A stretch of DNA of 64,000 bases, taken from Phycisphaerales bacterium UBA5793. Lineage in GTDB: Bacteria > Planctomycetota > Phycisphaerae > Phycisphaerales > UBA5793. Each line of letters starts with the position of its first letter. Position 1 is the first letter of the stretch. The stretch spans positions 41,250-105,249 of the forward strand of contig DIDT01000045.1 of assembly GCA_002418285.1 (NCBI GenBank), given 5' to 3'. The position numbers and the translations under genes are program-made. Positions 4,695 to 23,315 of the stretch are shown here, piece by piece. Under the pieces are notes generated by a model. That model was not told the origin of the DNA. It did no database searches and saw nothing but the letters and a program-made list of their open reading frames with translations.

Positions 4695-5861
4695 ATGCAA
4701 GTCTGCTTTCACTTTGATGAAAACGCTCTGGGTAGCGGCGCCCGCGCAATTGAGTTCTTGCTTAAGCACGGAAGACGCCGCGACCTCAAGATCCGGTCCA
4801 GACTCTACGGCGGATCGCTTCTCATTCACACGGGTGCCGAAGCGCTAGTCCACCGGGGCCGCACCACCACGAGCAAAACGAACCTGGAAACACTGGAATC
4901 GCTTACTCGCGAGTGGCTAACGCCACAGCCCTTCTGCTGGTTCGGTCTCTTGCCGCGAGCTGTCGAAGTTGTCTCTTCCAGCCACGTCTACTGCACGCTC
5001 TTCGAGACGATCGAGCCTCGCCAAGCCCTGCAACTTCACAGCGCTGCATCGAAAGCGTTGCCGGACTTGTACCTGGGCGCACTTCAAGTCGACGAATGCC
5101 TGCCCTCTCATCTTGCTGGATACCAGCTCATGGCTATGCTCCGAGTTGATGGCAAGGCTGCGTACGTAACTTGGGACGGACTTTCTCCGGACTCAAAGCA
5201 GCCGTGGCTCCTTGAACTGCTTCACCGGGTAGGCTTTGATCCAGTCGATTACGAGGATGTGTCTGCCAAGTTCACGATCTTTGATCGCCACGGCGGCTGC
5301 GACTCAAGGCTCAGATCCGCCCAGTGCCGACGCTCCATGGTCGAACTATTTGATGGGGTAGTTGACTCCTCTCTTGTTCGCATTAGAGACGCCATGCCCG
5401 ACGTCCACGAACGCTTGTGGGCAACACTTCGTGGATTTGAAACAGCGAGCGTCGATGAACAGTTCACCAGCGTCGCACTGGGCTGTCGGCGGCTGATCGA
5501 GTACGCCGCAGACTGCCTCTTTCCTCCCAAAGCGTCGGCTCCAAATGAGCGGAAGCTCGACAAGGCCTCATTCAAAAACCGATTGCTGAAGTACCTGGAG
5601 GAGTGCCAAGTCGAACGGACAGATGTGCGAATGATTGAAGCGAATCTTGAACATGCTGCAGCGTGCGTTGATCGGCTGCTCGAACTCGCAAATCGGGGCG
5701 TGCATTCCAGTTCGACGCGCGATCAGGCGAGGCGGTGTATTCTCGGTACGGTGATTCTCTTGGATGATCTCTGCAATGTCAATCGCAAAGGGTTTGCCGT
5801 GCGCATCTCGCTCAACACGGAGGCAATTGAAGGCATTACAGGGAAACACTCGTCGCCGTAA
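4695..5861 (+). CDS. hypothetical protein; the C-terminal helical region is reminiscent of DUF4145
   Basis: 388-aa ORF convergent with the ATPase-HNH operon. The C-terminal segment ALGCRRLIEYAADCLF...KNRLLKYL...VDRLLELANRGVHSS resembles, from memory, the DUF4145 pattern (CRRxLE ... R..GN..H) seen in restriction- and Abi-associated proteins. The N-terminal 230 aa are unassignable. Confidence 0.5.
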   Translation: MQVCFHFDENALGSGARAIEFLLKHGRRRDLKIRSRLYGGSLLIHTGAEALVHRGRTTTSKTNLETLESLTREWLTPQPFCWFGLLPRAVEVVSSSHVYCTLFETIEPRQALQLHSAASKALPDLYLGALQVDECLPSHLAGYQLMAMLRVDGKAAYVTWDGLSPDSKQPWLLELLHRVGFDPVDYEDVSAKFTIFDRHGGCDSRLRSAQCRRSMVELFDGVVDSSLVRIRDAMPDVHERLWATLRGFETASVDEQFTSVALGCRRLIEYAADCLFPPKASAPNERKLDKASFKNRLLKYLEECQVERTDVRMIEANLEHAAACVDRLLELANRGVHSSSTRDQARRCILGTVILLDDLCNVNRKGFAVRISLNTEAIEGITGKHSSP

Positions 5862-5956: not shown

Positions 5957-5976
5957 AGTCGAGTAGCGTCTCGACT
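5957..5976. terminator. hairpin between convergent genes (AGTCGAG-tagcgt-CTCGACT)
   Basis: Perfect 7-bp stem with a 6-nt loop. It abuts the HNH gene stop codon (5976-5978) and lies about 95 nt after the stop of ORF 4695..5861. There is no strong U-tract. Confidence 0.3.
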
Positions 5977-7097
5977 CAGTTTATCGCGGGAGGTAAGGCA
6001 GGCTCGATCCCCAAGCGCCTCCGGTCTTCTTCGAGTTGCAACAGCGTGTCCTCGATTATCGCCCCGGTTGCAGCTGCAAATCTGTACAGTTCGCAGCAGT
6101 AAATTGCGCGAGCGCGCTTGCCGATCCACGCGGATTCCAGATGGGCCAGGAGCTCGAACTTCTCGACAACGGTTTGCGCATCTACTGGCTGCGTTTCATT
6201 CTTGAGGCAGTCGACCACGCTCCGCTGAATTGTCTGAATGTCGTCCATGATGGCAGCGCCCCAGTATTCAGACAAACGGAACAACCCGTCCAGATTCTCG
6301 ACGCGCTTTGCGTCGGCTACCTCAATAGCCGAAAGCTCTATGCCCAGCGTGCGATCGGGCTTCTCCACGAAGTCGACCGTAAACCGGTTCCTCGCCGTTC
6401 GTAGCCGCGGATGGAACCACTGCGATGCTTGATCTGCTTCATCCCAATCGAGGGGTACCTTGTCCCCCTTGCGATCTCCTTTGTTGGACTCATGGCAGGA
6501 CGGAATCAGATTGTCGGGGTGAACGGACAGAAATGGAAAGGCACTCTTGGGCAGGAAATGATCTACCTCGACGCTCTGTAGTTCACCATCGCAATAGGGA
6601 CAAATTCTCGCACGTGGCGCACGTACGTACAACTCCTTGGTGAGTTTCTCTGGCGCGCCTTGAATCGACACTGGATATCCGAGCGACTTGTTGAGCCATG
6701 GATCGTCGAAAGCGAGCAACAGTCGCCTCATAGCTTCGTGGACGGGCGATTGAGTCCAGTAGTCCCGGTCCGTCTTGCGGAGACGTACCGCCCCGTTCTG
6801 GGCATAACAGTGCCGAAATGCATGCTGCTCCCGCATTACGGCAATGAACTCCTGCTTTGGTCCCTGGTTGGCGCTCGCAATGGTGGACAGCAGCGATTGT
6901 CGTTCGCCGCCACTGTTCGTCCAGAATCTCTGAATCCACTCCCGATCCACTCTCGGCCACGCAACGTCCGACAACCACTGAAGATCAACGGTTGCGCCCT
7001 CGGGTAGCGCGCACAATCGTCGGACGAGACGCCGCTGAAGCACGACAATTCGCAGCATGTTTTGACGAACGGCGGAATCAGGCACCGGGTGTATCAT
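5976..7097 (-). CDS. HNH endonuclease-domain protein (PtuB / TIGR02646-like)
   Basis: 373-aa ORF with an HNH core: ICPYCDGELQSVEVDHFLPKSAFPFLSVHPDNLIPSCHESNKGDRKGDK. Its start (ATG 7097, or alternatively ATG 7058) overlaps or closely follows the ATPase stop at 7078-7080. Confidence 0.8.
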   Translation of the reverse strand: MIHPVPDSAVRQNMLRIVVLQRRLVRRLCALPEGATVDLQWLSDVAWPRVDREWIQRFWTNSGGERQSLLSTIASANQGPKQEFIAVMREQHAFRHCYAQNGAVRLRKTDRDYWTQSPVHEAMRRLLLAFDDPWLNKSLGYPVSIQGAPEKLTKELYVRAPRARICPYCDGELQSVEVDHFLPKSAFPFLSVHPDNLIPSCHESNKGDRKGDKVPLDWDEADQASQWFHPRLRTARNRFTVDFVEKPDRTLGIELSAIEVADAKRVENLDGLFRLSEYWGAAIMDDIQTIQRSVVDCLKNETQPVDAQTVVEKFELLAHLESAWIGKRARAIYCCELYRFAAATGAIIEDTLLQLEEDRRRLGIEPALPPAIN

Positions 7098-8964
7098 CAG
7101 TTATTCCGTCAAGAATCTGCTGCAGCCTGGCTCGCGGCCACCCACCGCCAATCGCCGAAACAAGTGTCTCCAATTCTTCTCGGCTCTTGCCGTCCCATGT
7201 CCGTGCCAAATACCTGCGCAATGCTTGCTCCGCCCGCGAACCTATTGATGCCTGCATTCCGAAGACATGCAGCATCACGCGACCTGGCTCAGCGCCGAAC
7301 GTTGAAAAGGAAACGGGATGAAGTACGGCTTGGCCATACTCACGAGTCAGCCGGACTATCTCACTCGCGAATGCGTCGGTCAGCGCAATGCTCGTATGCG
7401 TAGCAACCATCACTTGAGCCGCGGTCGTCTTCAGCACATTGTCATCGATGATGTCGATGATCTCGCGCTTCCAGGAGTCATTGAAATGAGTCTCCGGCTC
7501 GTCAAGCAAAAGCAGGCTCCCATCCCGCTCTCTCAGCAGCAGCAACAGCGCCATTCGGCCCAGGAGCATGCGCTCTCCGTCGCTGAAGTCGTCCAACGTC
7601 AGGACCACATCATCCAGTTTGCCGTCGTGCGCGGCCATCTGGGTAGTGCGCTTCACGGTGACGGTCACATCTTCGATCAGTCCGGCCGCCCACCATGCGT
7701 GTAGGGCACGGAACACATCCCACAACGCACGATCAGTCCAGTCGGCCGCCTGCTTCCGAACCGTACTCAGCGCGCGTACTACGGCCTCTGCCCCTGAGGG
7801 CGAGCCATCCACGCGATCAACGATCTCCCGCAATGGCTCAGGCACTCGATTGCCAACCGAGACTCCTCGAATGTCTGGCTCGATTCGCCGCTCGAAGCGC
7901 CCAAGATCTATCACCATCTGCAATCGCCCCAACGGCTGTCGAATGACTTCATCTGCGAGTGCCGTCAGGGCCATCCACTGTGCCAGCCACTCCGAGTTGA
8001 GCTCCTGGGAGGGCGGGCGATAGGTGATGCTCAAGTGCGTTGGCCACCACCAATCGATCTCATTCAAAAGCGTGCGCGCATCTTTCTCGGCCGGGCGCTC
8101 TCCTTTCTGCTGCTGAGCCACGGCCGTCCGCAATGCGCTTCGCCATGTGTCCAGTTGCGAGAACGCGGCGCCATCGGTTAACTCTCGTGCCGCCACAATC
8201 AGCCCAACTGAAATGGCTGCCAGTTTTAGATCGTGCGGCCCCAACAGAAGACACTTGGCGTCGGCACCACGATCGGTAGGGTTTATTCGTGCCTGAATCG
8301 CCGCTCGCTCAGACTTATCGATTGCGACCTCTGGGGAATTCAGTTCGCGTTCGACGGTCCACCCTCGCGGCCGGTCTTGATCGTCACTCAACCCGTGATA
8401 GGTGGCATGAGACAAATCGACATCTGACAAATCTGCTTGGCGCACCTTCTCCCATGCGTCCAAGTCACCGGATGTGTATGCCACAACTGACGAGGGAAGA
8501 TACCGACTCACCAATTGGTTGCCGGACATTCGATCGCCCGTGACCGTCTGCGCCCAAAACTCTGCATGCGCCACTTCCTTATCATCAACTGCAGACAGCA
8601 CTTCTACCCAATCAACCTCGTCCTTGCCGGCAATACATGCCTCCCACAAGTGCCAACTCTCCGGAATGACGGCGAACACGGCTTCGCTCGCGGTCTTTCC
8701 CATGTGCCGGAATACCACCATGGCTCGCTCATCGTCTCGATTCATTTCGTAAACGAGCGCTACTGGAAACGGTGGAACGCGTTCGGCTTCCAGCCAGCGA
8801 AATGTCTCATAGACCGCTCGCAACAGACTGCTCTTTCCAGTTCCGTTCAGACCGACGACGAACTGCAATGAGCCTTTGCGATCGAGGATCGTCTCTTCAC
8901 GAAACTCCACCTTGAGATCTCGCAGCACGCCGTAGTCGGGCAGGTGAAGATATCGCAGCCTCAT
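7078..8964 (-). CDS. ABC/SMC-like AAA ATPase (AAA_15/AAA_21 type; PtuA-like, restriction-system-associated)
   Basis: 628 aa with Walker A VGLNGTGKSS, a signature-like FSDGERMLLGRMALL, Walker B LLLLDEPETHF and H-loop VATHTS. The ATG shares ATGA with the hsdS stop at 8961-8964. Confidence 0.85.
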   Translation of the reverse strand: MRLRYLHLPDYGVLRDLKVEFREETILDRKGSLQFVVGLNGTGKSSLLRAVYETFRWLEAERVPPFPVALVYEMNRDDERAMVVFRHMGKTASEAVFAVIPESWHLWEACIAGKDEVDWVEVLSAVDDKEVAHAEFWAQTVTGDRMSGNQLVSRYLPSSVVAYTSGDLDAWEKVRQADLSDVDLSHATYHGLSDDQDRPRGWTVERELNSPEVAIDKSERAAIQARINPTDRGADAKCLLLGPHDLKLAAISVGLIVAARELTDGAAFSQLDTWRSALRTAVAQQQKGERPAEKDARTLLNEIDWWWPTHLSITYRPPSQELNSEWLAQWMALTALADEVIRQPLGRLQMVIDLGRFERRIEPDIRGVSVGNRVPEPLREIVDRVDGSPSGAEAVVRALSTVRKQAADWTDRALWDVFRALHAWWAAGLIEDVTVTVKRTTQMAAHDGKLDDVVLTLDDFSDGERMLLGRMALLLLLRERDGSLLLLDEPETHFNDSWKREIIDIIDDNVLKTTAAQVMVATHTSIALTDAFASEIVRLTREYGQAVLHPVSFSTFGAEPGRVMLHVFGMQASIGSRAEQALRRYLARTWDGKSREELETLVSAIGGGWPRARLQQILDGITDDTPGA

Positions 8965-10745
8965 TCCCCGGGCTCCTTACCTTCATCGCTCCAAGAACCA
9001 GTCTGATCGGCCCAGCTCCCTGCCGCTTGTGTCCACGATTCCGTGACTCGCGCCAAACGAGCCAGCTCCTCCATTCGAGCAAGGTCCGATTGCTGCTCAT
9101 CTGTCGAATTCTCCCGGACCAGGTAGTACATGTTGCCGAACCCGGTTCCGTGGTACTCTTCAATCGGACTACCAGTCACCTCCCCGGCCGGTCGGCTGAC
9201 GAGTTTCACTAGTCCTCGGGCCACGAGAACATCCAAATGGCGCCGCAGCGCATCATCGGCCAGTTCGTGCAGGGGCGATTCCAACCATTCGCGCATTGAA
9301 TGGACGGTAAATGTTGAAAAGACCGCCTCCCGATGCCCCTGGTAGGCGACTTGGTCGAACAATTGCCGCTGTTCGCGCGAGAGATCGGCGAATCTCCCAG
9401 ACCGTGTTAGACTCCCCACGGTCGGCGGTGTCGTTGGTTTCACGAGCTTGACCCCCGCAGACTTGAGGATTGCGTCTCGTTCCATTGCTTCGTGTTCCAG
9501 ACTCTCGCGGTTCGCCACTCGCCACTCGGCAGTAAGCTCGCCACTGAATGCATGTGCGAGTAGAGAGTCATTCAGATCTTTGAGCAGCGCATAGCCGCGC
9601 ATGTGTTCGTCGATTCCACGGACAGCGGACAATCTACTAGTAAAGTGCTTCTGCTGATTCGGCGGCAGAATCGGCACGGGAACGCTCTTGAGCCCGTCAA
9701 TATTGATGTTGTATTGCCCCGCTGAGGTTTTTGCCCTTCGCAGGATATCCATTCGACCACGGACAGTGCGAAGATACGCCAACAATACGTCGGGATGCAT
9801 GATGTCCGGTTTGAGGCGCCCGCGGATCAAGTACGATGCAAAGACGATCGCGTGTCCATCCTGCCCCGCTCTGATCGCGCGGTTCGAAGAAAACGTGGCA
9901 CTACGCCCGATGAACTCCGGATTACCGTTTGTTCGCACGAATAGCAAGTCACCATCGTGCAAAACGAGCTTCTCGAACTCCTGTTGTGTCAGCGACACCT
10001 TGACAAGGTCGTCGTACGACACATCGTTTCCGATCACGTTTGGGATTCGCAGAGTGGTGTATCCATCGTCTCCCGAAGCCGTAGAGGTACCGTATCGGAA
10101 CTCCTCCACAACCTCTCCGAGCGTGGTAGTCGGAAAGTCCACTATGGGATCACCAAACATCTCGTGGAAGATGGCGGGGGTGAGTCTAGCGGTGAGTTCA
10201 TCGGCTCGTCGTCGAAGGCGACGCACGGCGCGAGCCTCTTCGAGTATCGCAACGATGCGGCGCTGCTCACTCAACGGAGGAACGGGGATTGGAGCAACCT
10301 TCAAGAACTCAGCGGGCACTCGCTGCTGACCCGCAGAGCCCGAAAACGCAGCCTCAGCACGAGCGAGGAAGAATGGAGCGCGGATATACAGGAACAACCA
10401 CTCCGGTAAGATACTTGGTCCGGCACGAAGTACATGGAACTCCGTTGACCCGAAACCACGACCGCCCAGGAGGCCACGCGCAATCGCGGCCTTGCCATTC
10501 TGCATGCACGGCGTGATCTTCGCAAACAGGACATCGTTCTCAAGGAACGATGTGTATCCGGTTCGGACCTCGGCGATCTCCCGAATCTCCGGCTCGGCGA
10601 TTTCGCCCATGACCTCGTCGACTGCGGACATCGGCACAAAAGTCACCTCGCCCTCCTCGCCTCTCTCGATATGATCGCGAGGGTTGATCTCACAGACTTG
10701 AGCGAGACGAGCTAGGTACCACGTATTTGGTAATACCGACTTCAA
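8961..10745 (-). CDS. hsdS: type I restriction-modification specificity subunit HsdS with an extra C-terminal extension of about 190 aa
   Basis: There are two target-recognition regions (LPNTWYLARLAQVCEI...; FPTTTLGEVVEEFRYGTS...). They are separated and followed by the conserved helical regions PPLSEQRRIVAILEEARAVRRLRRRADELTARL and LPPNQQKHFTSRLSAVRGIDEHM...LLAHAFSGELT. The start is TTG at 10743-10745, sharing TTGA with the stop of the upstream remnant. The C-terminal tail contains LRRHLDVLVARGLVKLV (winged-helix-like). Confidence 0.85.
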   Translation of the reverse strand: MKSVLPNTWYLARLAQVCEINPRDHIERGEEGEVTFVPMSAVDEVMGEIAEPEIREIAEVRTGYTSFLENDVLFAKITPCMQNGKAAIARGLLGGRGFGSTEFHVLRAGPSILPEWLFLYIRAPFFLARAEAAFSGSAGQQRVPAEFLKVAPIPVPPLSEQRRIVAILEEARAVRRLRRRADELTARLTPAIFHEMFGDPIVDFPTTTLGEVVEEFRYGTSTASGDDGYTTLRIPNVIGNDVSYDDLVKVSLTQQEFEKLVLHDGDLLFVRTNGNPEFIGRSATFSSNRAIRAGQDGHAIVFASYLIRGRLKPDIMHPDVLLAYLRTVRGRMDILRRAKTSAGQYNINIDGLKSVPVPILPPNQQKHFTSRLSAVRGIDEHMRGYALLKDLNDSLLAHAFSGELTAEWRVANRESLEHEAMERDAILKSAGVKLVKPTTPPTVGSLTRSGRFADLSREQRQLFDQVAYQGHREAVFSTFTVHSMREWLESPLHELADDALRRHLDVLVARGLVKLVSRPAGEVTGSPIEEYHGTGFGNMYYLVRENSTDEQQSDLARMEELARLARVTESWTQAAGSWADQTGSWSDEGKEPGE

Positions 10746-11898
10746 ACCCTTTCCTCCACTCGCTGCAGCAGCCCGGCAAGATGGGCGCGAATCTCAGAGT
10801 GGATGCCGTCGAGCTTGCGGATTAGGGCGGCGGGCCTCTCGTGGTCGCCTGGGGCAAAGACAAAGGGTTTATGCCGACCGGCGGAGAGCATCAGATCGGC
10901 TGCCTCGATGCAGTCGGGATCGAGCCGATCGTGGAACTCTTCCTTTACTGTGCCGTCGTCGGAAAAGACATTCAGCCGACTAACAAGAAACTGGAGGTAT
11001 GCGGGATCGACATTGCCCTCCGCGTCGTGGGTCGGCTTGGTGATCTCCTGCTGGGTGTCGGGATCGTTGCCCCATGAGTCAAGGCGTGCCCAGGTGCGGA
11101 CAGGGGTGACCCACGCGAGCGTCTGATCATCCGGCTTCGGATTATCTTCGCTCACCACGCGCTTCTGTTCGCGTTGCTTTGTCTCAACGCCACGGAGCAC
11201 AAGGTCGTATCCGTCAAGCCGGGCGAAGCACTTGAGAATGGCGAGCTGCTCTTCCTCAGTAACTGCGTACTCCTTCGGCTTGGTCCGTTTCGTGCCGCTC
11301 CCGAAGCGACCATTGAGCGCCGTCCGCGCTTCGACTCTCGCCTTTTCGTAGGAGTCCTTCAGTACGGTAAAGGCATACTGGTCGTATTCGCGATCGAGGA
11401 TTCCTTGGTCGCGGTTGAGTTTCACGAGTTCGTTCCACAGCTTCCTGAGTCGGGAGTCGAGTTCCTTGTCGGCCTTGGCGACCTGTTTGGGTTTGGACTT
11501 CTCGTTGCAACCAATTGCGTGGGCGTCATTGACGAACTGCGTGGTGAGACCGTCAATGAGTGCCTCACCCTCCTCGGCCACGCAATCTGTGGCCTCGCCG
11601 GGATCACGGGGAAGGGTGGTGAAAACCTCGTGGATGCCTAACGCGTGACCGCTTTGTGATTGTTCTTCTGGAAAGGCTCGGAGAAAGTCCTCGTCAAGGA
11701 CTCGCCACCGCTCCGGCCAATACTCGGGCTGGTGGTATGCCTTGGTGATGGCCGCAGCACGAAGGCCAGGAGCGTCGGATCCCTAAAGGACCTCGTGCCA
11801 CGCGCGGAACTTCTCGACGGCGTCATACAGATCGTTGTCCTGGCCTTGGCGTTCCCTGCGCTTCTGGTCGAGGGTGAAAGCCTCCTCGGTGACCTCGT
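10742..11898 (-). pseudogene. 5'-truncated ORF of unknown function (possibly the C-terminal part of a large R-M / methyltransferase-associated protein), cut by the IS and carrying an in-frame TAG
   Basis: My translation of the minus frame continues upstream of the listed 279-aa ORF (10742..11581): ...GGKVNEVTEEAFTLDQKRRERQGQDNDLYDAVEKFRAWHEVL*GSDAPGLRAAAITKAYHQPEYWPERWRVLDEDFLRAF...CVAEEGEALIDG.... There is an in-frame TAG at 11783-11785. An upstream in-frame TGA at 11913-11915 lies already inside the IS left end. I recognised no methylase motifs. Confidence 0.6.
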
Positions 11899-11952: not shown

Positions 11953-12246
11953 ATGGAGGACAAGGTCATGAGCAGGAAGCGTTTCTCGGCTGAAGAGATC
12001 GTGAATAAGTTGCGTCAGGCGGATGTGCTGATCTCCCAGGGCCAGACCGTCGCGCAGGTGTGCAAACAGATCGCCGTCACCGATCAGACGTACTACCGAT
12101 GGCGCAAGGAATACGGCGGCCTGAAGACCGACCAGGCGAAGCGTCTGAAGGAACTCGAGCGGGAGAATGCTCGCTTGAAGCGTCTGCTGGCTGATGCGGA
12201 GTTGGACAAAGCGATTCTTCGGGAGGCCGCCAACCCAAACTTCTGA
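11953..12246 (+). CDS. IS3-family transposase OrfA
   Basis: RKRFSAEEIVNKLRQADVLISQGQTVAQVCKQIAVTDQTYYRWRKEYGGLKTDQAKRLKELERENARLKRLLADAELDKAIL is the typical IS3/IS407-group HTH plus coiled-coil OrfA. Confidence 0.9.
   Translation: MEDKVMSRKRFSAEEIVNKLRQADVLISQGQTVAQVCKQIAVTDQTYYRWRKEYGGLKTDQAKRLKELERENARLKRLLADAELDKAILREAANPNF
12234..12240 (+). promoter_or_regulatory. candidate -1 programmed ribosomal frameshift heptamer C CCA AAC
   Basis: In the orfA frame the codons are aaC CCA AAC ttc tga. The orfB frame is -1 and reads ...QPKLLSPQRKRAAVIHVMEQ... through the same site. The heptamer fits the X XXY YYZ pattern, 4 nt before the orfA stop. Confidence 0.6.
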
Positions 12247-12269
12247 GCCCGCAGCGGAAGCGTGCAGCG

Positions 12270-13136
12270 GTGATCCACGTGATGGAGCAGCTGCAGGTCT
12301 CCGAACGGCGGGCGTGTCAGGTATTGCGTCAGTCACGGATGACGCAGCGGTATCTTCCACAGGTTCGCGACGATGAAGAACCACTGACTCAACGGATCAT
12401 CGAGCTGGCGTGCGTGTACGGTCGGTACGGAACACCGAGGATCACGGCGATGCTGAGACGCGAGGACTGGCGTGTGAATCACAAACGGGTGGAACGCCTC
12501 TGGCGTGAGCAGGGACTGCGGATGCCGCGCCGGCAGCCCAAACGCGGTCGATTGTGGCTGAACGATGGATCATGCGTTCGACTTCGGCCGCAGCATCCGG
12601 ACCACGTGTTGGCGTATGACTTCGTGACGGCGCGGACGCACGAGGGCCGACCGTTCCGGATGCTCACGCTGGTGGACGAGTTCACCCGCGAGTGCCTGGC
12701 GATCGATGTGGCGAGGTCGTTGAAGGCGGATGATGTGCTGGAACGTCTGTCCTGGCTGTTCGCGATCCGCAGCGTGCCGGACTACATCCGATCGGACAAC
12801 GGCCCGGAGTTCACTTCGAAGGTGGTGCGGGACTGGCTGAATCGTGTCGGAGTGAAGACCTTGTTCATCGAGCCGGGCAGCCCGTGGGAGAACGGGTACG
12901 TGGAGAGCTTCAATGGCAAGCTGCGCGATGAACTGCTCAACGGGGAAATCTTCTATACTCTGAGGGAGGCAAAGGTGCTGACCGAACGATGGCGTGTGCA
13001 CTACAACAGAATCAGGCCGCACTCATCACTGGGCTACCGGGCGCCGGCCCCCGAGACGTTGGCTCCGATGGAGTCGTGCTCCGCTGCGCTGCGCACGTCT
13101 CCATCGGGTGTGCATTGCACCGAAGGACTAACATAA
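12270..13136 (+). CDS. IS3-family transposase OrfB (integrase/DDE core), normally made as an OrfAB fusion
   Basis: The translation contains VSERRACQVL...YGRYGTPRITAMLRREDWRVNHKRVERLWREQGL...AYDFV...LVDEFTRECL...IRSDNGPEFTS...FIEPGSPWENGYVESFNGKLRDELL...YNRIRPHSSLGY. The frame is open upstream to about 12222, consistent with frameshift fusion. Confidence 0.9.
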   Translation: MIHVMEQLQVSERRACQVLRQSRMTQRYLPQVRDDEEPLTQRIIELACVYGRYGTPRITAMLRREDWRVNHKRVERLWREQGLRMPRRQPKRGRLWLNDGSCVRLRPQHPDHVLAYDFVTARTHEGRPFRMLTLVDEFTRECLAIDVARSLKADDVLERLSWLFAIRSVPDYIRSDNGPEFTSKVVRDWLNRVGVKTLFIEPGSPWENGYVESFNGKLRDELLNGEIFYTLREAKVLTERWRVHYNRIRPHSSLGYRAPAPETLAPMESCSAALRTSPSGVHCTEGLT

Positions 13137-13153
13137 ACACTGGTACGAAACCC

Positions 13154-13165
13154 GGGGAAAGGTCA
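13154..13165. repeat. IS3 right terminal inverted repeat
   Basis: GGGGAAAGGTCA. Its last three bases supply the TGA stop (minus strand) of the neighbouring gene 13163..14299. Confidence 0.85.
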
Positions 13166-14299
13166 CGATCCAGAGATCGTCACATCCATCATGGCTCCGG
13201 CGAACATGGTGTTCGGAAATACGTCGTCGACATTCACTTCGCCAGGTGGCGGCGGAGCGATCTCGGCGCGCCACATTATCGCTTCATTGCGCTGGCGTTT
13301 GGTGTTGTAGCCATAACCAACGGCGTACACATAGGTGTCATCGTGCCAGACTCCACCCGCCATGGAGCTCTCGTACCTGCTGGGCAGGAACGCGTGCAGG
13401 TCCACGTAGGACTCGGGCGTGCCGCTCCACAGGGCGGCGCGATAGAGGTCGGGGGCGTAGACAAAGCCCACCTGGTACTCGCCGTCTCCACCCAGGCCCT
13501 CCGAGCTCCTGTTTACCCCGGGAGGATGCAGGTCCACCCAGGACTCGGCGGTTCCGTTCCACAAGCAGGCGTGAAAGCGCAGGGGTGAGCCCACCTTTGC
13601 GTAGCCCACCTGCTGGCCGCCACCCACGCCGAGGGCAAACGAAAGATCCGCGCCTGCGGGGTGCAGGTCAACCCATGACTCGGGCGTGCCGGTCCACAGG
13701 CCGGCGTGAGGACCGTCGCCCATGCCCGCCACGCCCACCTGCTGCCCTCCGTCCGCGTCACTGGCCTGAGCATTGGTCGCCCCGGCCCAGTAGGGAGTCA
13801 GGTCCACATACGACTCGGGTGTACCGTTCCACAAGCAGGCATATGGAGTTCCGGCGATGTAGAACCGGCCTACCTGTTGTCCACCATCGACACCGGTGGC
13901 GAACGATTGATCCGCGCCGGCGGGATGCAGGTCGACCCACGACTCGGGCGTGCCGGTCCACAGGCTGGCGTGATTGACGCCGTCCAGGGTGGCGTAGCCC
14001 ACCTGCTGGTAGCCGTTCATGCTGGATGCACTCGAGTTGCTCATCCCGGGGGGGTGCAGATCCACCCACGAGTTGGCGCTGCCGTCCCACAGGATGGCGC
14101 GTACGAAGCCACCCACATTGGCCCTGCCGACCTGCTGGCCGCCGTAGACGTCTGAAGCGCTCGAGCCGGCCGCCCCGCCGGGGTGCAGATAGATCACGTC
14201 CCACTGGGCATTCGCGCCCACCGGCGTTGCGAATGCGACGGCGCTAAGAGCGAGAATCTGCCAGGCGATCTGGCGTCCTTTTGTATTAACACATCCCAT
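13163..14299 (-). CDS. secreted repeat protein (about seven 45-aa GGQQVG...LW.GT.ESWVDLHP repeats, HAF-like), probably 3'-truncated by the IS
   Basis: The start is set at ATG 14297-14299 (MGCVNTKGRQIAWQILALSAVAFA signal-like), preceded by AAAGGA. The repeats are readable in the translation. The stop codon lies inside the IS inverted repeat. Confidence 0.7.
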   Translation of the reverse strand: MGCVNTKGRQIAWQILALSAVAFATPVGANAQWDVIYLHPGGAAGSSASDVYGGQQVGRANVGGFVRAILWDGSANSWVDLHPPGMSNSSASSMNGYQQVGYATLDGVNHASLWTGTPESWVDLHPAGADQSFATGVDGGQQVGRFYIAGTPYACLWNGTPESYVDLTPYWAGATNAQASDADGGQQVGVAGMGDGPHAGLWTGTPESWVDLHPAGADLSFALGVGGGQQVGYAKVGSPLRFHACLWNGTAESWVDLHPPGVNRSSEGLGGDGEYQVGFVYAPDLYRAALWSGTPESYVDLHAFLPSRYESSMAGGVWHDDTYVYAVGYGYNTKRQRNEAIMWRAEIAPPPPGEVNVDDVFPNTMFAGAMMDVTISGS

Positions 14300-14468
14300 G
14301 ATCCTGTCCTTTCTGGGCTGCAAATATGGACAATTGCTATCTTCTGACGTGCTTCGTGTGGCCTACGTCGATCGAGGCACAGGGCTCGAACGGCGCTCGC
14401 AACGACTGCGTGAACACCGCATGGCCGTGTCCCCTTCATGCGGAGTCGCTCAACTGAACTCCCGACCG

Positions 14469-16277
14469 TCATTGCACTTCATGGGTCACGACGTTGCTCT
14501 TCTTCGATTGCTGGGCGGCCTGCACCCAGACATGCCTGCCCTGCAGCCCGTTGGACACGAACCCGGATACACCGGCAATCCCGTATCTGTCTGCCGTTTT
14601 CGAAGCGATCAGTTGAGGTTGAGCCAGGTCCAGCGTCACGTTCAGTTGGCGGACATAGGTGCTGCCCAGACCATGCAGCGAAGCGACAAAGTAGACCCGC
14701 TCGCGCGGATTGCAATTCGACGCATCGATCCGGGCCAATTCGCCGGCGTGCAGTGATTCGACTCCAATGTAGATCTCGCCTGCCGTGTTCATCGCCGCGA
14801 CCACGGCTTCGTACGCATCGACGCGCCCGGCGCCGTATTCGTTGTCCGGCCCCGGATCGCCCAGGTCCACGCTCGTACTCATGAGCAGCTGCCTCACTTG
14901 CGCGTGGGTCAGCTCAGGATTCGCGCTGAGCATCAGCGCGATCGTTCCGGCCACGTGCGGCGTGGCGCTCGGCGACTGGTTGAAGTAGCCCGTGCAGTTA
15001 CTCGACGTGCTCCTGGTATTGTTGCCCGGTGCCGTGACCGTCGGCTTCATCTTCCCGGGCGGGTACGGCCAGTCGTTGTACGGGTCGATCCCTTCCCACG
15101 ACACCGGACCGCGGCTCGACCAAATCATCAGGTTGTCACTGCAGTCCGTATTGCCCACGGTGATCACCAGCGGCACGTCGCCCGGAGTCTCGACCGAGTC
15201 GATCCCGTATGCAGTGCCATTAACGGCTGCGGTAAACGTCACGACCACCCCGGCCGCCATGGCGTTTTCACACAACGCACGCCACACCGAGCGCTGCGGG
15301 TTCGCACCGTGCCGAAAGCCCAGGACCCCTACCATCACGTCCGCACCGTTGTCCACACAGTATTGCATCGAGTCCCAGACCGACTGCTCGCCCCTTGACC
15401 CCACATGGTTATAGATCCTGACGATCATCGCTTTCGCCGTCGGCGCCATGCCCGTTTGCGTGCCGTTGGTCCCGTCGCCTACGACGGTACCGGTCACGTG
15501 CGTTCCGTGTCCGCCCCTGTCCCCATCCGATACATCGTTGTTGTTGAACTCGAAGTTCCAGCCGTGGATGTCATCGATGTATCCGTTGTTGTCATCATCG
15601 ATTCCGTTGTTGGGGGTCTCGTTGGGATTGGTCCAGATCTGGTTCACCAGGTCCGGGTGCGTGATGCAGCAGCCGGTGTCGATCACACCGACCACCACGC
15701 CGGTTCCGGTGTTGCCGAAGTCGTTCCACACCTCAGGCGCCCGCATCAGGCTCACACCGCACTCGATCTCCGCGGTCGTCCCGCCATGGCCACCCTGATC
15801 GGGAAACATCTCCTTGCCGATTCGATGATCGAGGTACAGGTGCGCGACGTCACTGCGCTGCGCGACGTGCATCGCCACGTCGCGCGTCATTTCGGCCCCG
15901 ACCATGTTGTGAATCCAGAACGAGCGGATGTTGCCGCCGACGCTTCCCAGCGATTGCTCGTTGTGCAGGTATGCCAGCAACTCCGTCTGCGTGCGCTGTG
16001 CAATGGGCTTGAGAAAAGACTTCATCGCTTCGCGCTGCCCCGATCGCCGTTCAAAGTTGAAGATGGTCTGAACCGCCTCCCGCGGCGCCTGCTCGGTCAT
16101 CACAATCGTGATCGGCACGAGTTCGCTCGCCGCCGAGCCGCGCAGCACCTCCTGCAGATCCGGCGCAACTCGCTGCTGAAGCTGCACGGCATCGCCGAAC
16201 ACCTCCTGTGCAAAGCTGCCCGATTGGGCCGCCAGCACTATGCCTGCAACCATCATTCCTAGTACTCTGTGTCGCAT
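14469..16277 (-). CDS. secreted subtilisin-like serine protease (peptidase S8)
   Basis: The catalytic triad contexts are VGVIDTGC, GGHGTHVTGTV and SPSATPHVAGTIALM. The start is set at ATG 16275-16277 (MRHRVLGMMVAGIVLAAQSGSFAQE signal), preceded by AGGAGA. The ORF extends to 16439. Confidence 0.9.
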   Translation of the reverse strand: MRHRVLGMMVAGIVLAAQSGSFAQEVFGDAVQLQQRVAPDLQEVLRGSAASELVPITIVMTEQAPREAVQTIFNFERRSGQREAMKSFLKPIAQRTQTELLAYLHNEQSLGSVGGNIRSFWIHNMVGAEMTRDVAMHVAQRSDVAHLYLDHRIGKEMFPDQGGHGGTTAEIECGVSLMRAPEVWNDFGNTGTGVVVGVIDTGCCITHPDLVNQIWTNPNETPNNGIDDDNNGYIDDIHGWNFEFNNNDVSDGDRGGHGTHVTGTVVGDGTNGTQTGMAPTAKAMIVRIYNHVGSRGEQSVWDSMQYCVDNGADVMVGVLGFRHGANPQRSVWRALCENAMAAGVVVTFTAAVNGTAYGIDSVETPGDVPLVITVGNTDCSDNLMIWSSRGPVSWEGIDPYNDWPYPPGKMKPTVTAPGNNTRSTSSNCTGYFNQSPSATPHVAGTIALMLSANPELTHAQVRQLLMSTSVDLGDPGPDNEYGAGRVDAYEAVVAAMNTAGEIYIGVESLHAGELARIDASNCNPRERVYFVASLHGLGSTYVRQLNVTLDLAQPQLIASKTADRYGIAGVSGFVSNGLQGRHVWVQAAQQSKKSNVVTHEVQ

Positions 16278-16407
16278 GTGATTCTCTCCTTGATTTGATT
16301 CAGATAGCCCAAACTGAGTCGCCCACGCCCTTTCGATCGTTGACGCGATGAGCGTCACACAGACGAAGTCTGGATTCGGTGCACCTTTCCTGCACGGGTC
16401 TCTTTCG

Positions 16408-17919
16408 CTACTGCACAAGCAAAACGTCTGTGGTGGCACATGTGGTCAGGTCAATCGCCTGGACGAAGACGTGTCCGCAGGCGGCATTGGGGACGTTGGG
16501 GATGTCGAGGTTGGCCGTGCCGTTCGCATTAGCGCGGACGACGTCGGCGAGTTGCGCGGTGTTGTTCAAGCCCAGTGTCGTGCCGGCGCAGGGGTTGCCC
16601 TCGGGAATGCGCAGTCTCCCTTCGCCGCGCGCGTAGAGATAGGCCACACGCTCATTCGGCGTGGCGCCTTGGACACTAAATCGCATTGCGCCCGGGCAGG
16701 AACCCAGAACACTGAGTGTCGGTCCGTCTCCACAGTTGAGATCGAAGACGTACGCTGAGCCGGAGTTCGTGCCGCGGTCATCGTCGCCGTACGATCCCAC
16801 GAAGATCGTGCTGCCACTGATCGAGACGGACCGGCCGAACCAGTCGCCGGCCCAGCCGTCGGAGGCGAGGAGTTTGGCCGACTCTGTCCATACACTGCCG
16901 ACCTTCTCGAAGATGTACGCGGATCCGGAGTTATCGCCGACGTCATCGTCCAGGTCGGCGCCAACGACGATGACGTCCCCGCTCAGGACGGCGGAGCAGC
17001 CGAAGTGGTCGCCTGCCTGCCCGACAGAGGCGATGAGTTTCTGCTCGTCGACCCACGATGAGCCATCGAAGCGGAAGACGTACGCCGAGCCCGAGTCTGC
17101 GCCGAGGTCGTCGTCTTCTTTTGCACCGACCACCGCGTTGTCTCCGCTCACGGCAACGGAGCAGCCGAAATAGTCTGACATCTCGCCATCGGAGGCGAGT
17201 AGTTTTTGTTCCTCGATCCACGAAGAGCCAATGAAGCGGTAGATGTACGCTGAGCCGGAGTCTGTACCGCGGTCATCATCGCCGTACGCTCCCACGACGA
17301 TCGTGTTACCGCTGATGGAGACGGACTGGCCGAACCAGTCGCCGGCCGAGCCATCGGACGCCCGCAGTATCTGTTCCTCGACCCACTCGGAGCCGGCGTA
17401 GCGGAAGACGTATGCCGAGCTGATTTTGCCGTTGTGGGCTCTCGTCGCTCCGACGACCGCAATATCTTCTTTCACCGCGACGGAGTGTCCGAAATGGTCG
17501 CCCTGTTCACGATCTGAGGAAACCAGAATCTGTTCCTCGACCCATTCGGAGCCATCGAAGCGGAAGACGTACGCTAAGCCGCCGTTACTGTCCCAGTTCG
17601 CACCGATGATGGCGATATCGCCATCCAAGGCGACGGACCACCCGAACCGGATGCCGGAGACGAAGGACCTCTGCTCCTCGATCCACGAGGTGCCGTTCCA
17701 TCGAAAGAAATACACCGAGCCGACAGCCCACGCACCGACAACGGCAACGTCCCCGTCCACGGCGAGGGAGCTACCGAACAAATCGTACTGTTCGCCGTCG
17801 GAGGCGAGCAGCTTGGCCGTCTCTTCCGGATCGCATTGCGCGCGGGCTACCGAATCAACGAAAGGGAAGCACAGCGCTGCGGCGATCATGATGGAACCTG
17901 AAATTCTCGTCGATTTCAT
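16408..17919 (-). CDS. secreted FG-GAP-like beta-propeller repeat protein with a shared Cys-containing C-terminal domain
   Basis: It has a signal peptide (MKSTRISGSIMIAAALCFPFVDSVARA) and about seven repeats of the form KLLASDG..D.FG.SV.ISG...VVGA..DD..G..SGSAYVF. The C-terminal 105 aa are nearly identical to the C-terminus of the next gene. Confidence 0.8.
   Translation of the reverse strand: MKSTRISGSIMIAAALCFPFVDSVARAQCDPEETAKLLASDGEQYDLFGSSLAVDGDVAVVGAWAVGSVYFFRWNGTSWIEEQRSFVSGIRFGWSVALDGDIAIIGANWDSNGGLAYVFRFDGSEWVEEQILVSSDREQGDHFGHSVAVKEDIAVVGATRAHNGKISSAYVFRYAGSEWVEEQILRASDGSAGDWFGQSVSISGNTIVVGAYGDDDRGTDSGSAYIYRFIGSSWIEEQKLLASDGEMSDYFGCSVAVSGDNAVVGAKEDDDLGADSGSAYVFRFDGSSWVDEQKLIASVGQAGDHFGCSAVLSGDVIVVGADLDDDVGDNSGSAYIFEKVGSVWTESAKLLASDGWAGDWFGRSVSISGSTIFVGSYGDDDRGTNSGSAYVFDLNCGDGPTLSVLGSCPGAMRFSVQGATPNERVAYLYARGEGRLRIPEGNPCAGTTLGLNNTAQLADVVRANANGTANLDIPNVPNAACGHVFVQAIDLTTCATTDVLLVQ
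16471..16704. repeat. 234-bp near-identical copy A (encodes the shared C-terminal domain)
   Basis: Hand alignment against 17997..18230 gives about 9 mismatches in 234 positions. Confidence 0.8.
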
Positions 17920-17933
17920 GTTGATAGTCCTTT

Positions 17934-19589
17934 TCAGTCGACGATTGCCACGTTGCTCGTCGCGCAGGCGCTCAGATCGATCGCCTGGATGTAGATGTGT
18001 CCGCAGGCGGCGTTGGGGACGTTGGGGATGTCGAGGTTGGCCGTGCCGTTCGCATCAGCGCGGACGACGTCGGCGAGTTGCGCGGTGTTGTTCAGACCCA
18101 GTGTCGTGCCGGCGCAGGGGCTGCCGTCGGGAATGCGCAGTCTCCCTTCGCCGCGCGCGTAGAGATAGGCCACGCGCTCAAGCGGCGTGGCGCCTTGGAC
18201 ACTAAATCGCATTGCGCCCGGGCAGGAACCGAGGATGGAGAGATCGGGACCCGCAGGAACGCCGTCGAGGAACAGCACCCACACCGCGCCGCGGTCCCTG
18301 CCCCCGTCGTCATCACCCCCCGCCCCCACGGCGAGGTCTTCCACACCGTCGCCGTCGAAATCGCCCAGGGCGGCCACAGATTGGCCGAACCAATCGGCAT
18401 CATCCAGGGCACCTTCGAAGCCGCCTTCCGTGTCGCTGACCTTCTGGTGAGACTTGACCGTGCCGTTGCTGTTGAGGAACAGCACCCACACCGCGCCGCG
18501 GTCGTTGCCCCCGTCGTCGTCTACCTGTGCGCCTACGGCCAAGTCGCCCACGCCGTCACGGTCGAGATCACCCGGCGCGGCCACCGACGTGCCGAACCGA
18601 TCGTTATCATCCAAGATGCCGGTGAAGCCGCCATATGTGTCGCTGATCTTCTGGTGCGACTTCACCGTCCCATCCGTGTTGAGGAACAGCACCCACACCG
18701 CGCCGCGGTTATCACCCCCGTCGCTGTCCAAGTTTGCGCCGACGGTCAGATCGCTTACATCGTTGCCGTCGAGATCACTCAGCCAGGCGATTGACCGGCC
18801 GAACCAATCTTCGTCAGTCAGGAGACCGGTGAAGCCGCCATCGGTGTCGCTGATCTTCTGGTACGACTTCACCGTCCCATCCGTGTTGAGGAACAGCACC
18901 CACACCGCGCCGCGGTTGTTCCCCCCGTCATCGTCTTGGATGGCCCCCACTGCCAAGTCGGTCACGCCGTCACGGTCGAGATCACCCAGCGCGGCCACCG
19001 ATGTGCCGAACCGATCGTTGTCATCCAGGAAGCCGGTGAAGCCGCCTTCGGTGTCGCTGATCTTCCGGTAAGCCTTCACTGTGCCGTCGGTGTTGAGGAA
19101 CAGCACCCACACCGCGCCGCGCTTGTTCCCCCCGTCATCATCCAAGTTCGCCCCCACGGCCAGGTCACACACGCCATCGCCGTCGAGATCGCCAAGTGAG
19201 GCTGCAGAGACGCCGAATTCATCCCCATCCCTCAGGACGCCGGTGAAGCCGCCTTCGGTGTCGCTGATCTTCTGGTGCGCCCTGACGGTCCCGTTGGGGT
19301 TGAGAAACAGCACCCATACCGCGCCGCGGTCAGTTCCCCCGTCATCGTCTTGGCTTGCCCCAACGGCGAGGTCGCCCACGTCGTCGCCATCGAGATCGCC
19401 CAGCGCGGCAACCGTCCAACCGAACCAATCGTTGTTGTCCAGGAGGCCACTGAAGCCGCCGTCGGTGTCGCTGATCTTCTGCTGCGACAGGACCCAGCCG
19501 GGCTGAGCCAGCGCGGCACTGGCTAATGCGAGGTTGGCGGCCACGACCGGAACTATGCTGTTTCTATTCCTGAATGCCCGCGGTAACAC
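17934..19589 (-). CDS. secreted FG-GAP/VCBS-type beta-propeller repeat protein with a shared C-terminal domain
   Basis: The start is GTG at 19587-19589, preceded by AAGGAGA. It has eight repeats of about 70 aa: QKISDT.GGF.G.L...D.FG.SVA.LGDLDGDGV.DLAVGA..DDDGG..RGAVWVLFLN.DGTV. The repeat period of about 207-216 bp is visible at nucleotide level. Confidence 0.85.
   Translation of the reverse strand: MLPRAFRNRNSIVPVVAANLALASAALAQPGWVLSQQKISDTDGGFSGLLDNNDWFGWTVAALGDLDGDDVGDLAVGASQDDDGGTDRGAVWVLFLNPNGTVRAHQKISDTEGGFTGVLRDGDEFGVSAASLGDLDGDGVCDLAVGANLDDDGGNKRGAVWVLFLNTDGTVKAYRKISDTEGGFTGFLDDNDRFGTSVAALGDLDRDGVTDLAVGAIQDDDGGNNRGAVWVLFLNTDGTVKSYQKISDTDGGFTGLLTDEDWFGRSIAWLSDLDGNDVSDLTVGANLDSDGGDNRGAVWVLFLNTDGTVKSHQKISDTYGGFTGILDDNDRFGTSVAAPGDLDRDGVGDLAVGAQVDDDGGNDRGAVWVLFLNSNGTVKSHQKVSDTEGGFEGALDDADWFGQSVAALGDFDGDGVEDLAVGAGGDDDGGRDRGAVWVLFLDGVPAGPDLSILGSCPGAMRFSVQGATPLERVAYLYARGEGRLRIPDGSPCAGTTLGLNNTAQLADVVRADANGTANLDIPNVPNAACGHIYIQAIDLSACATSNVAIVD
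17997..18230. repeat. 234-bp near-identical copy B
   Basis: See 16471..16704. Confidence 0.8.
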
Positions 19590-22711: not shown

Positions 22712-23315
22712 CTTCCTTACCTGGTGCATGGGTCGGATCGGCCAGTTCCTTATAAAGCCAGGCTCGCGCAAAGGCCCAGTCCAAGTCCACCGTGCGGGCC
22801 GAAACACCCAGTATGCGGGCGGTCTCGTCCACACTCAATCCGGCATAGAACCGCAGGTGAACCACTTGAGCAACGCGCGGCCTCTGACTCTCAAGGCGAC
22901 GCAGAGCGTCATCGAGCGCAATGATCTGCTCAGAATTTTCTTCCCGGGCCAGGTCGGCAACGTCACCAATGTCCAGTGTCAGGCGCCGCTGCGCAGGTCC
23001 CCCCCGCTTCTGGCGTGCGCGGGCGCGTGCGTGCTCGATGAGGATCCGCCGCATCGCTTCGGCGGCGGCGGTGAAGAAGTGGCCGCGGCTGTCCCAGGTG
23101 AGTTCGGCGTTTGCAACAAGCCGGGCGTAGGCCTCATGAACAAGCGCGGTCGCCTGCAGCGTGTGCCCGACTCGCTCTTCGTTCATGCGCTGCTGTGCGA
23201 TCTTGCGCAGTTGATCGTAAACGAGTGTCAGAAGTTGACCCGCATTTTCCGGGCCGACACTGTCCGCGGACTGCAGGAGGCGTGTGACTTCGTGCTCCGG
23301 CACTTCGTCGGGCAT
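22668..23315 (-). CDS. ECF-type RNA polymerase sigma factor (kinase-associated Planctomycete-type family)
   Basis: The translation reads LLTLVYDQLRKIAQQRMNEERVGHTLQATALVHEAYARLV...WDSRGHFFTAAAEAMRRILIEHARAR...VHLRFYAGLSVDETARILGVSARTVDLDWAFARAWL. It overlaps the downstream kinase start by about 44 nt. Confidence 0.85.
   Translation of the reverse strand: MPDEVPEHEVTRLLQSADSVGPENAGQLLTLVYDQLRKIAQQRMNEERVGHTLQATALVHEAYARLVANAELTWDSRGHFFTAAAEAMRRILIEHARARARQKRGGPAQRRLTLDIGDVADLAREENSEQIIALDDALRRLESQRPRVAQVVHLRFYAGLSVDETARILGVSARTVDLDWAFARAWLYKELADPTHAPGKEDEKRRTRSHPGDFR

Follow-up and report, generated by a model that had tools for sequence, protein, structure and literature searches.

A winged-helix tail on a type I specificity subunit as a candidate coupling module for the adjoining ATPase-HNH pair

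Type I restriction-modification (R-M) systems and Septu-like pairs of an ATPase and an HNH protein are usually seen as separate systems that cluster in islands. The locus considered here has parts of both. It lies in a stretch of 64,000 nucleotides from Phycisphaerales bacterium UBA5793 (contig DIDT01000045.1, positions 41,250 to 105,249; hereafter the window, with coordinates counted from its first letter). Within it, the gene for a type I specificity subunit, HsdS, continues well past its canonical core and runs directly into the gene for an ATPase, which is followed by the gene for an HNH protein. The added tail contains a predicted winged helix-turn-helix (wHTH) domain. Here, it is argued that this tail may serve the ATPase-HNH pair rather than the recognition of DNA sequence by HsdS.

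The obvious protein to compare is, of course, the canonical HsdS of the EcoKI and EcoR124I type. Its layout, in which two target recognition domains (TRDs) are split by two conserved helical regions (CRs) in the order TRD1-CR1-TRD2-CR2, is present in the window HsdS as residues 1-410, and the operons of the window's relatives also contain hsdR and hsdM. The window HsdS differs from the canonical protein by adding, after CR2, a tail of about 185 amino acids made of a linker, the wHTH and a helix. The operons differ from canonical type I R-M operons as well, in that HsdM is about 820 amino acids long, with an extension of about 300 amino acids, and in that the ATPase and HNH genes are coupled translationally to hsdS.

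The order in which an ATPase gene precedes an HNH gene is shared with Septu (PtuA plus PtuB), with type I-A retrons, with "Septu type II" (a reverse transcriptase and its multicopy single-stranded DNA, RT-msDNA, plus PtuAB), and with the PADLOC candidate PDC-M01. In the type I-A retron, RT-msDNA is reported to be a third component, encoded upstream, which forms an assembly with both the HNH protein and the PtuA-like ATPase (PMC12475279). Here, in contrast, the third component is a wHTH tail on the specificity subunit, and the pair scores far below the cut-offs of the NCBIfam PtuA and PtuB models. In the window, the two genes and their motifs are placed as follows.

7078..8964, minus strand: ABC/SMC-type ATPase, PtuA-like, 628 amino acids (Pfam AAA_21 and AAA_15; PADLOC PtuA1, 9e-36).
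8827-8853, minus strand: Walker A motif of the ATPase, GLNGTGKSS.
7573-7584, minus strand: signature motif of the ATPase, SDGE.
7483-7515, minus strand: Walker B motif of the ATPase, LLLLDEPETHF.
5976..7097, minus strand: HNH protein, 373 amino acids (PADLOC PDC-M01B, 1e-18; PtuB, 4.5e-7).
6483-6602, minus strand: HNH motif, CPYC...DH...N...CH..N.

The three ATPase motifs (Walker A, signature and Walker B) are intact. PtuA1 is the best PADLOC model for the ATPase, which reaches 37.9 bits on NCBIfam PtuA against a cut-off of 500. The HNH protein reaches 21 bits on NCBIfam PtuB against a cut-off of 150, and 28.6 bits (1.2e-6) on TIGR02646 against 52. On TIGR04435, the "restriction system-associated AAA family ATPase", the window ATPase reaches 103 bits against a cut-off of 300, and does so with its C-terminal third alone; a control, the ATPase of locus L067, reaches 809 bits. 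Because these scores fall below curated equivalog cut-offs, the two proteins are relatives, not members, of PtuA, PtuB and TIGR04435, and the 103 bits make the ATPase a sister family of the last.

The TIGR04435 operons themselves have the same order, an extended hsdS, then the ATPase gene, then a gene for an HNH protein of about 360 amino acids, and they share the C-terminal third of the ATPase. Their HsdS extension (L058-L084, for example L067:4182-5762) is about 110-150 amino acids long, ends in '...YExIKxWVFExLxxGxLxQxFDDxxNxIELKA', and is covered by PADLOC profile PDLC03117, which does not cover the window tail. Homology between the two extensions was sought and was not detectable (hhalign probability 0.2). 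That the TIGR04435 ATPases are also preceded by an HsdS extension, and one that looks unrelated, suggests that an appendage on HsdS is generally needed by such ATPase-HNH pairs.

Two further systems are instructive. PrrC-EcoprrI, in which a type IC hsd locus also encodes an anticodon nuclease, and PARIS have in common with this locus an effector built on an ABC-ATPase and encoded within a type I R-M operon or next to it. Both are guardians of restriction systems, with PrrC held latent until the R-M complex is inhibited (PMC12707154). PrrC, however, is one protein that includes an RNase domain, and no HsdS appendage has been described for it, whereas the effector here is a pair of proteins, the ATPase and the HNH protein, whose proposed link is a wHTH fused to HsdS. 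The BREX methyltransferase BrxX (PglX) contains a TRD, a coiled-coil spacer, a three-stranded wHTH and C-terminal helices (PMC12839542). Compared by description, these elements follow the same order as in a tail-bearing HsdS. BrxX belongs to a different protein family and a different system, and there the arrangement has been proposed to extend the interface with DNA.

No description of the tail, or of the class of five-gene operons that carries it, was found in the literature searched, a search of limited reach. Each part by itself is of a familiar kind: the type I specificity subunit, the wHTH, and an ATPase-HNH pair of the Septu/PDC-M01-like type.

The HsdS open reading frame (ORF) and its tail are laid out as follows, where fragment residues are those of the AlphaFold2 model of the tail and pLDDT is its predicted local distance difference test score.

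8961..10745, minus strand: HsdS ORF, 594 amino acids, TTG start.
9516..10745, minus strand: canonical HsdS core, residues 1-410, TRD1-CR1-TRD2-CR2 (Pfam, PADLOC and NCBIfam profiles).
8964..9515, minus strand: C-terminal tail, residues 411-594, about 185 amino acids, beyond all canonical profiles.
9459..9509, minus strand: linker helix that follows CR2, with conserved alignment columns, residues 413-429, 'E(A)xxRDxxL' (pLDDT about 85 at fragment residues 14-30).
9483..9485, minus strand: in-frame ATG, Met-421, where homology to a free-standing 182-amino acid ORF in locus L001 begins (blastn breakpoint at 9483; junction alignment).
9408..9458, minus strand: variable linker of low confidence, residues 430-446 (pLDDT below 50 at fragment residues 38-47; alignment length varies).
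9120..9407, minus strand: predicted wHTH domain, residues about 447-542, 'LSREQ...RRHLDVLVARGL...YYL' (AlphaFold2, Foldseek).
9003..9104, minus strand: predicted C-terminal helix, 'D..R..EL.RLA' (fragment residues 149-182, pLDDT 50-70).
8964..9041, minus strand: acidic end rich in W, S and G, common to the window and the free-standing protein P0001 only.

Residues 411-594 are an extension past the canonical HsdS because the profiles all end near residue 404-415. Pfam Methylase_S (PF01420) matches residues 6-170 (5.9e-12). The PADLOC Specificity_I profiles, which have 375-392 positions, align to HsdS over their full length and end at residue 404 (PDLC03107, residues 8-404 against profile positions 2-392 of 392; PDLC03069, residues 9-404 against positions 1-387 of 387). 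NCBIfam PRK09737 covers residues 204-415, and an NCBIfam scan of the whole HsdS gave nothing past the core. A preliminary description of this DNA had placed about 190 residues beyond the second conserved helical region, and had the extension end exactly where the ATPase gene begins. Both statements hold: the profile alignments leave about 185 residues past the core, and the HsdS stop (8961-8963) overlaps the ATPase start (ATG at 8962-8964) in the letters ATGA.

The tail is genuine coding sequence. The same description had considered that it might be a frameshifted fusion with an independent downstream gene. This is ruled out by homology that spans the junction of core and tail and by dozens of loci that carry a long HsdS in a continuous frame; the window HsdS and that of L005 are 39% identical across residues 1-555.

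As to fold, a 13-sequence alignment gave the AlphaFold2 model of the tail; a model of the full HsdS, made from its single sequence, had a pLDDT of 35 and was unusable. The domain is modelled with the topology H1-b1-H2-H3-b2-b3. Its pLDDT is 84-90 in two blocks (fragment residues 51-70 and 81-120) and falls to 56-66 in the wing loop. Every Foldseek match in the PDB was a winged helix, the best being that of Cdc6 (1.3e-3), followed by MarR, ArsR, PadR, RPC34 and TFE-alpha. A sequence profile of the tail also gave weak wHTH matches among PDB sequences (ArsR, 0.0097; Fur; LexA). The model and its structural neighbours support a generic winged helix at residues about 447-542, in line with the winged-helix-like segment first noticed there by eye. 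The domain is unannotated in Pfam, NCBIfam and PADLOC: tails from three lineages matched no Pfam family at E up to 10 and no PADLOC profile.

What follows the wHTH is less constant. The helix motif 'D..R..EL.RLA' is kept, by alignment, in planctomycete and deltaproteobacterial-type tails. The acidic end rich in W, S and G, to which the preliminary description had drawn attention, is indeed present in the window HsdS, but it is limited to the window's lineage (the window and P0001), and tails elsewhere end differently. A conserved C-terminal 'GSW' motif was considered and dropped because the ends after the wHTH vary. In beta- and gammaproteobacterial members, an extra conserved domain of about 86 amino acids, 'YYFEVQLDYETS...GMFQV...ASLxELKxDIAxALKV', follows the wHTH (L015, L018, L022, L027, L031, L032, L037 and L089; for example L027:6740-7001). 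The Herpetosiphon HsdS (L025:3882-7004) is 1040 amino acids long and has about 520 residues between the tail domain and the ATPase gene.

The distribution of the tail was approached from two sides. From the side of the ATPase, 24 homologs were aligned, and with this alignment 80 loci were collected from one-genome-per-species contigs. In nearly all loci of the close ATPase family the order is hsdR, long hsdM, long hsdS, ATPase, HNH. In this class, hsdR encodes about 900 amino acids (ResIII plus EcoEI_R_C), hsdS 540-712, and the HNH gene about 365. The hsdM product has about 820-850 amino acids, HsdM_N and N6_Mtase followed by a conserved C-terminal extension of about 300 amino acids, for which no Pfam family was found in L005:2758-5238, L007:2767-5283 or L090:3638-6109. 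The hsdS stop overlaps the ATPase start across the class.

A tail-bearing HsdS lies immediately upstream of the ATPase in about 35 of the 37 close-family loci with enough upstream sequence. By iterated profile, the tail was detected at HsdS residues of about 410-560 in L005-L008, L011, L014, L015, L017-L039, L041 and L042, with detection in L020, L029 and L046 obtained with the profile filters off. In Gimesia panareensis (L090, CP036317.1), too, a tail-bearing HsdS is directly upstream of the ATPase. The carriers come from at least eight phyla and include Planctomycetota, Desulfobacterota, Verrucomicrobiota, Beta- and Gammaproteobacteria, Nostoc (Cyanobacteria), Chloroflexota, Deinococcales and Acidobacteriota. 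Among the Gammaproteobacteria they are Citrobacter, Serratia, Pseudomonas and a Pantoea plasmid (L089; Pantoea agglomerans NZ_CP134740.1). In this last and intact example, RefSeq labels the products "restriction endonuclease subunit S", "AAA family ATPase" and "hypothetical protein".

From the side of the tail, an exhaustive HMMER search of 1.84 billion representatives returned 31 matches, nearly all at residues of about 410-570 of proteins of 560-640 amino acids; a word-indexed search with a 36-sequence tail profile returned 12 mostly fragmentary proteins. HsdS genes of 560-650 amino acids exist because the tail domain has been added. A metagenome scan with a narrow alignment found L085-L088, and the ATPase was next in all three that have downstream sequence (L085-L087). 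The ATPase was immediately downstream also in L089, found by tblastn against plasmids, and in all of L093-L096, found by look-up of exact proteins. No tail was found in an hsdRMS operon without the ATPase-HNH pair in this small tail-first census, and the Serratia hsdS-ATPase region had no blastn match in E. coli complete genomes.

Tail and pair thus occur together whether one starts from the ATPase or from the tail, in every tail-first locus with downstream sequence, and nothing in that small census marks the tail as a common variant of standard hsdRMS operons. The preliminary description had called the tail unusual. It is so in lying beyond the canonical HsdS core; within the widespread class of hsdR, long hsdM, long hsdS, ATPase and HNH operons, however, it is a standard feature.

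A further indication of what the tail serves comes from loci that have lost the rest of HsdS. Searched alone in a word-indexed search, the tail gave a single match, P0001, a free-standing protein of 182 amino acids that is 79% identical to it. In the four loci that encode this protein (L001-L004), its ORF is directly upstream of an orthologous ATPase gene (84% at the amino acid level), followed by the HNH gene and a 388-amino acid neighbour, with no HsdS core, hsdM or hsdR beside the tail ORF. On these contigs, an unrelated gene on the opposite strand ends 10 base pairs from the tail ORF. DNA homology between L001 and the window spans window positions 9483 to 2778, and it starts exactly at the in-frame ATG within the linker sequence 'EAMERD'.

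It was considered that the free-standing form might be ancestral and the window a secondary fusion. This was rejected, as L005, L006, L085, L090 and the distant phyla are all fused. Because near-relative operons and distant phyla alike carry the fused form, that form is the ancestral one, from which L001 arose by deletion. When the window is compared with L001, the ratio of nonsynonymous to synonymous divergence (dN/dS) comes to 0.21 in the tail, with 0.10 in the ATPase gene and 0.17 in the HNH gene. These ratios show the tail under what appears to be purifying selection after the remainder of HsdS was lost.

The neighbouring 388-amino acid ORF (window 4695-5861, plus strand) is 96% identical to its L001 counterpart, with a synonymous divergence (dS) of 0.11, against a dS of 0.5-0.9 for the tail, ATPase and HNH genes (5976-9483, minus strand). 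This mosaic divergence suggests that the defence module either was swapped by recombination or evolves much faster.

The window copy is itself a decayed instance of the operon class. Upstream of hsdS, the following are found.

10745..11896, minus strand: what is left of a long hsdM, its 3' part, corresponding to residues 440-826 (tblastn with the HsdM of L005, 826 amino acids, and of L006, 827 amino acids; 55-58% identity).
11783-11785, minus strand: in-frame stop in the hsdM remnant.
10742..11581, minus strand: ORF of 279 amino acids, no family match, inside the hsdM remnant and matching the C-terminal part of long HsdM (phmmer, 4e-93).
11953..13136, plus strand: IS3-family transposase ORFs adjoining the truncated hsdM (Pfam rve, rve_3 and HTH_21 on 12270..13136).

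By this homology, the 279-amino acid ORF is hsdM remnant and not a separate gene. No hsdR was found within the 64-kb window, and in other assemblies of the same strain the contigs end at the hsdM/IS3 site. Because hsdM is truncated, with an in-frame stop, and hsdR is absent, the restriction half is defunct in the window, and therefore only the part that comprises tail, ATPase and HNH protein can still work. Despite the loss of hsdR and of the 5' part of hsdM beside IS3, the window has kept HsdS with its tail, the ATPase gene and the HNH gene intact. The HsdM and HsdR partners, which are not intact in the window, are encoded in the orthologous operons L005-L008, L089 and L090. Two independent truncations of the operon, one associated with IS3 in the window and one by deletion in L001, have both spared the tail.

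In some other loci hsdS is split or half-sized, with the part that encodes the tail, beside the ATPase gene, still open (L085:5745-7531, L095:5916-7876, L019:6462-6873, L022:5065-7001). It appears that decay or recombination affects the TRD region more readily than the tail.

Divergence was also compared between the tail and its partners, as pairwise distances among 20 complete operons. The distance between tails correlates with that between ATPases at r = 0.94, but with that between their own HsdS cores at only r = 0.38; the low correlation with the core arises because TRDs are shuffled. The partial correlation of tail with ATPase, given HsdM, is 0.69, against 0.18 for tail with HsdM given the ATPase, and 0.09 for tail with the C-terminal extension of HsdM given the ATPase. 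Measured in this way, the divergence of the tail is shown to follow the ATPase, and not the HsdS core, HsdM or HsdR.

On balance, although by little more than an even chance, the tail is judged to be a dedicated coupling module for the ATPase-HNH pair, one that would tether the pair to the restriction complex and restrain it there. The case for such an adaptor is built from co-occurrence, from the covariation of divergence and from one deletion derivative, L001; binding of the tail to the ATPase or the HNH protein, a restraining role and a trigger are what we infer from these. The module would consist of the linker helix, the flexible linker, the winged-helix domain and the terminal helix, and it would serve the downstream Septu/PtuAB-like pair of ABC-ATPase and HNH protein rather than sequence recognition by HsdS. 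In an intact operon, the tail would fasten the effector pair to the M2S or R2M2S complex and keep it under restraint. Sensing would then fall to the restriction complex, with the ATPase-HNH pair as a second-line nuclease, much as EcoprrI masks PrrC and as RT-msDNA holds PtuAB in type I-A retrons. Restraint of this kind would resemble that by an antitoxin, and would also explain why both truncations stop short of the tail.

Several points weigh against this reading. With a mean pLDDT of 70, the AlphaFold2 model of the tail is of only moderate quality, and the Foldseek matches are weak, at E-values of 1e-3 or above. Winged helices are classic binders of DNA, and the one that follows the HsdS-like spacer in BrxX "extends the DNA binding interface", in the words of its authors (PMC12839542). 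The deletion in L001 is undated, so that the dN/dS of the tail averages the periods before and after the loss. The tail adjoins the ATPase gene, and recombination of TRDs could give the covariation without any contact between the proteins. Last, in L012 and L013, the sole exceptions of their kind, the ATPase-HNH pair occurs with neither HsdS nor tail.

The coupling proposal can be extended, and the extension is offered tentatively, as a possibility rather than as the expected outcome. Here, the tail and the HsdS extension of the TIGR04435 operons would both be the physical switch of an undescribed and widespread two-layer class of type I systems. The nuclease would be held through the specificity subunit (by the wHTH, in the operons of the window type) under antitoxin-like restraint, and freed or activated when the complex is blocked by anti-restriction proteins or stalled on foreign DNA.

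Among the alternatives, the one that survives best, though still unlikely, gives the wHTH a role in the methyltransferase or restriction complex as an additional binder of DNA, one that would widen the footprint of HsdS or touch flanking DNA. The association with the ATPase-HNH pair would then reflect a shared operon history. The structural neighbours of the domain are, after all, nucleic-acid-binding winged helices without exception, and BrxX provides a known case of the layout in which TRD, spacer, wHTH and helical extension follow one another (PMC12839542). The wing arginine ('YR') is nearly invariant across tails, and many tails have 'RR' at the start of helix 3. That basic pair, however, is not conserved, being replaced by 'EG' in one clade. 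The domain has a median net charge of +1, and of -2 in the window, and is near neutral or acidic in many members; its invariant positions are hydrophobic (Leu) or Gly. Such charge and such invariant positions would be less typical of a conserved DNA contact than of an interface between proteins. Nor would an element that served the DNA contacts of the complex be expected to persist in L001 under purifying selection, where TRDs, HsdM and HsdR are gone, or to diverge in step with the ATPase instead of HsdM or HsdR. The small census, in which operons without the ATPase yielded no tail, points the same way.

Alternatively, the tail might serve the restriction complex by contact with protein, for example by docking on the HsdM extension of about 300 amino acids or on HsdR, with the ATPase-HNH pair an independent neighbour. 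The long HsdM extension and the HsdS tail are always together in these operons, and the window retains precisely the C-terminal part of HsdM. A tail that docked on HsdM should, however, have little reason to remain in L001, which keeps it without HsdM, and the partial correlation between tail and HsdM extension all but vanishes once the ATPase is taken into account. This makes the docking proposal distinctly improbable.

Weakest of all, and very improbable, is that the tail is a transcriptional autoregulator, like a C protein, of the ATPase-HNH genes or of the operon, fused to HsdS merely for co-expression: the wHTH is of the MarR/ArsR/PadR type and the separate small ORF of L001, directly upstream of two genes, has the layout typical of small regulators, but the tail is fused to HsdS in essentially all other loci, with translational coupling at ATGA and no intergenic operator region, it has no conserved basic recognition helix, and it would be strange to build a regulator into an M2S complex that is itself bound to DNA. 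All three alternatives to the coupling module are weakened, mainly by the L001 derivative and the pattern of covariation.

The surroundings of the operon may be described briefly. Elsewhere, the five-gene operon is found beside integrase, DUF3987 or D5-primase-like genes (L090:13084-17102 in Gimesia panareensis; L095:11154-14876 in a metagenomic contig), and in L005 a GmrSD type IV enzyme adjoins it (L005:9919-11760). These neighbours point to a mobile, defence-island setting. In the window, beyond the transposase, positions 13163-19589 and 19865-22834 (both minus strand) encode several large secreted repeat proteins (FG-GAP/VCBS-like, with 'GGxQVG' and 'DLDGDGxxDL') and a Ser/Thr kinase with TPR-like repeats. 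The closest relative of the window ATPase, P0003, carries an NCBI label of Phycisphaerales (Planctomycetota), and these proteins of the window are consistent with that group.

If the coupling proposal is true, a conserved domain fused to HsdS would connect a classical R-M enzyme physically, and in a way open to test, with a nuclease that acts abortively or as a second line. The guardian principle seen in PrrC and PARIS would then extend to a large and phylogenetically broad class of operons, and the tail domain may be used as a marker with which to find them.

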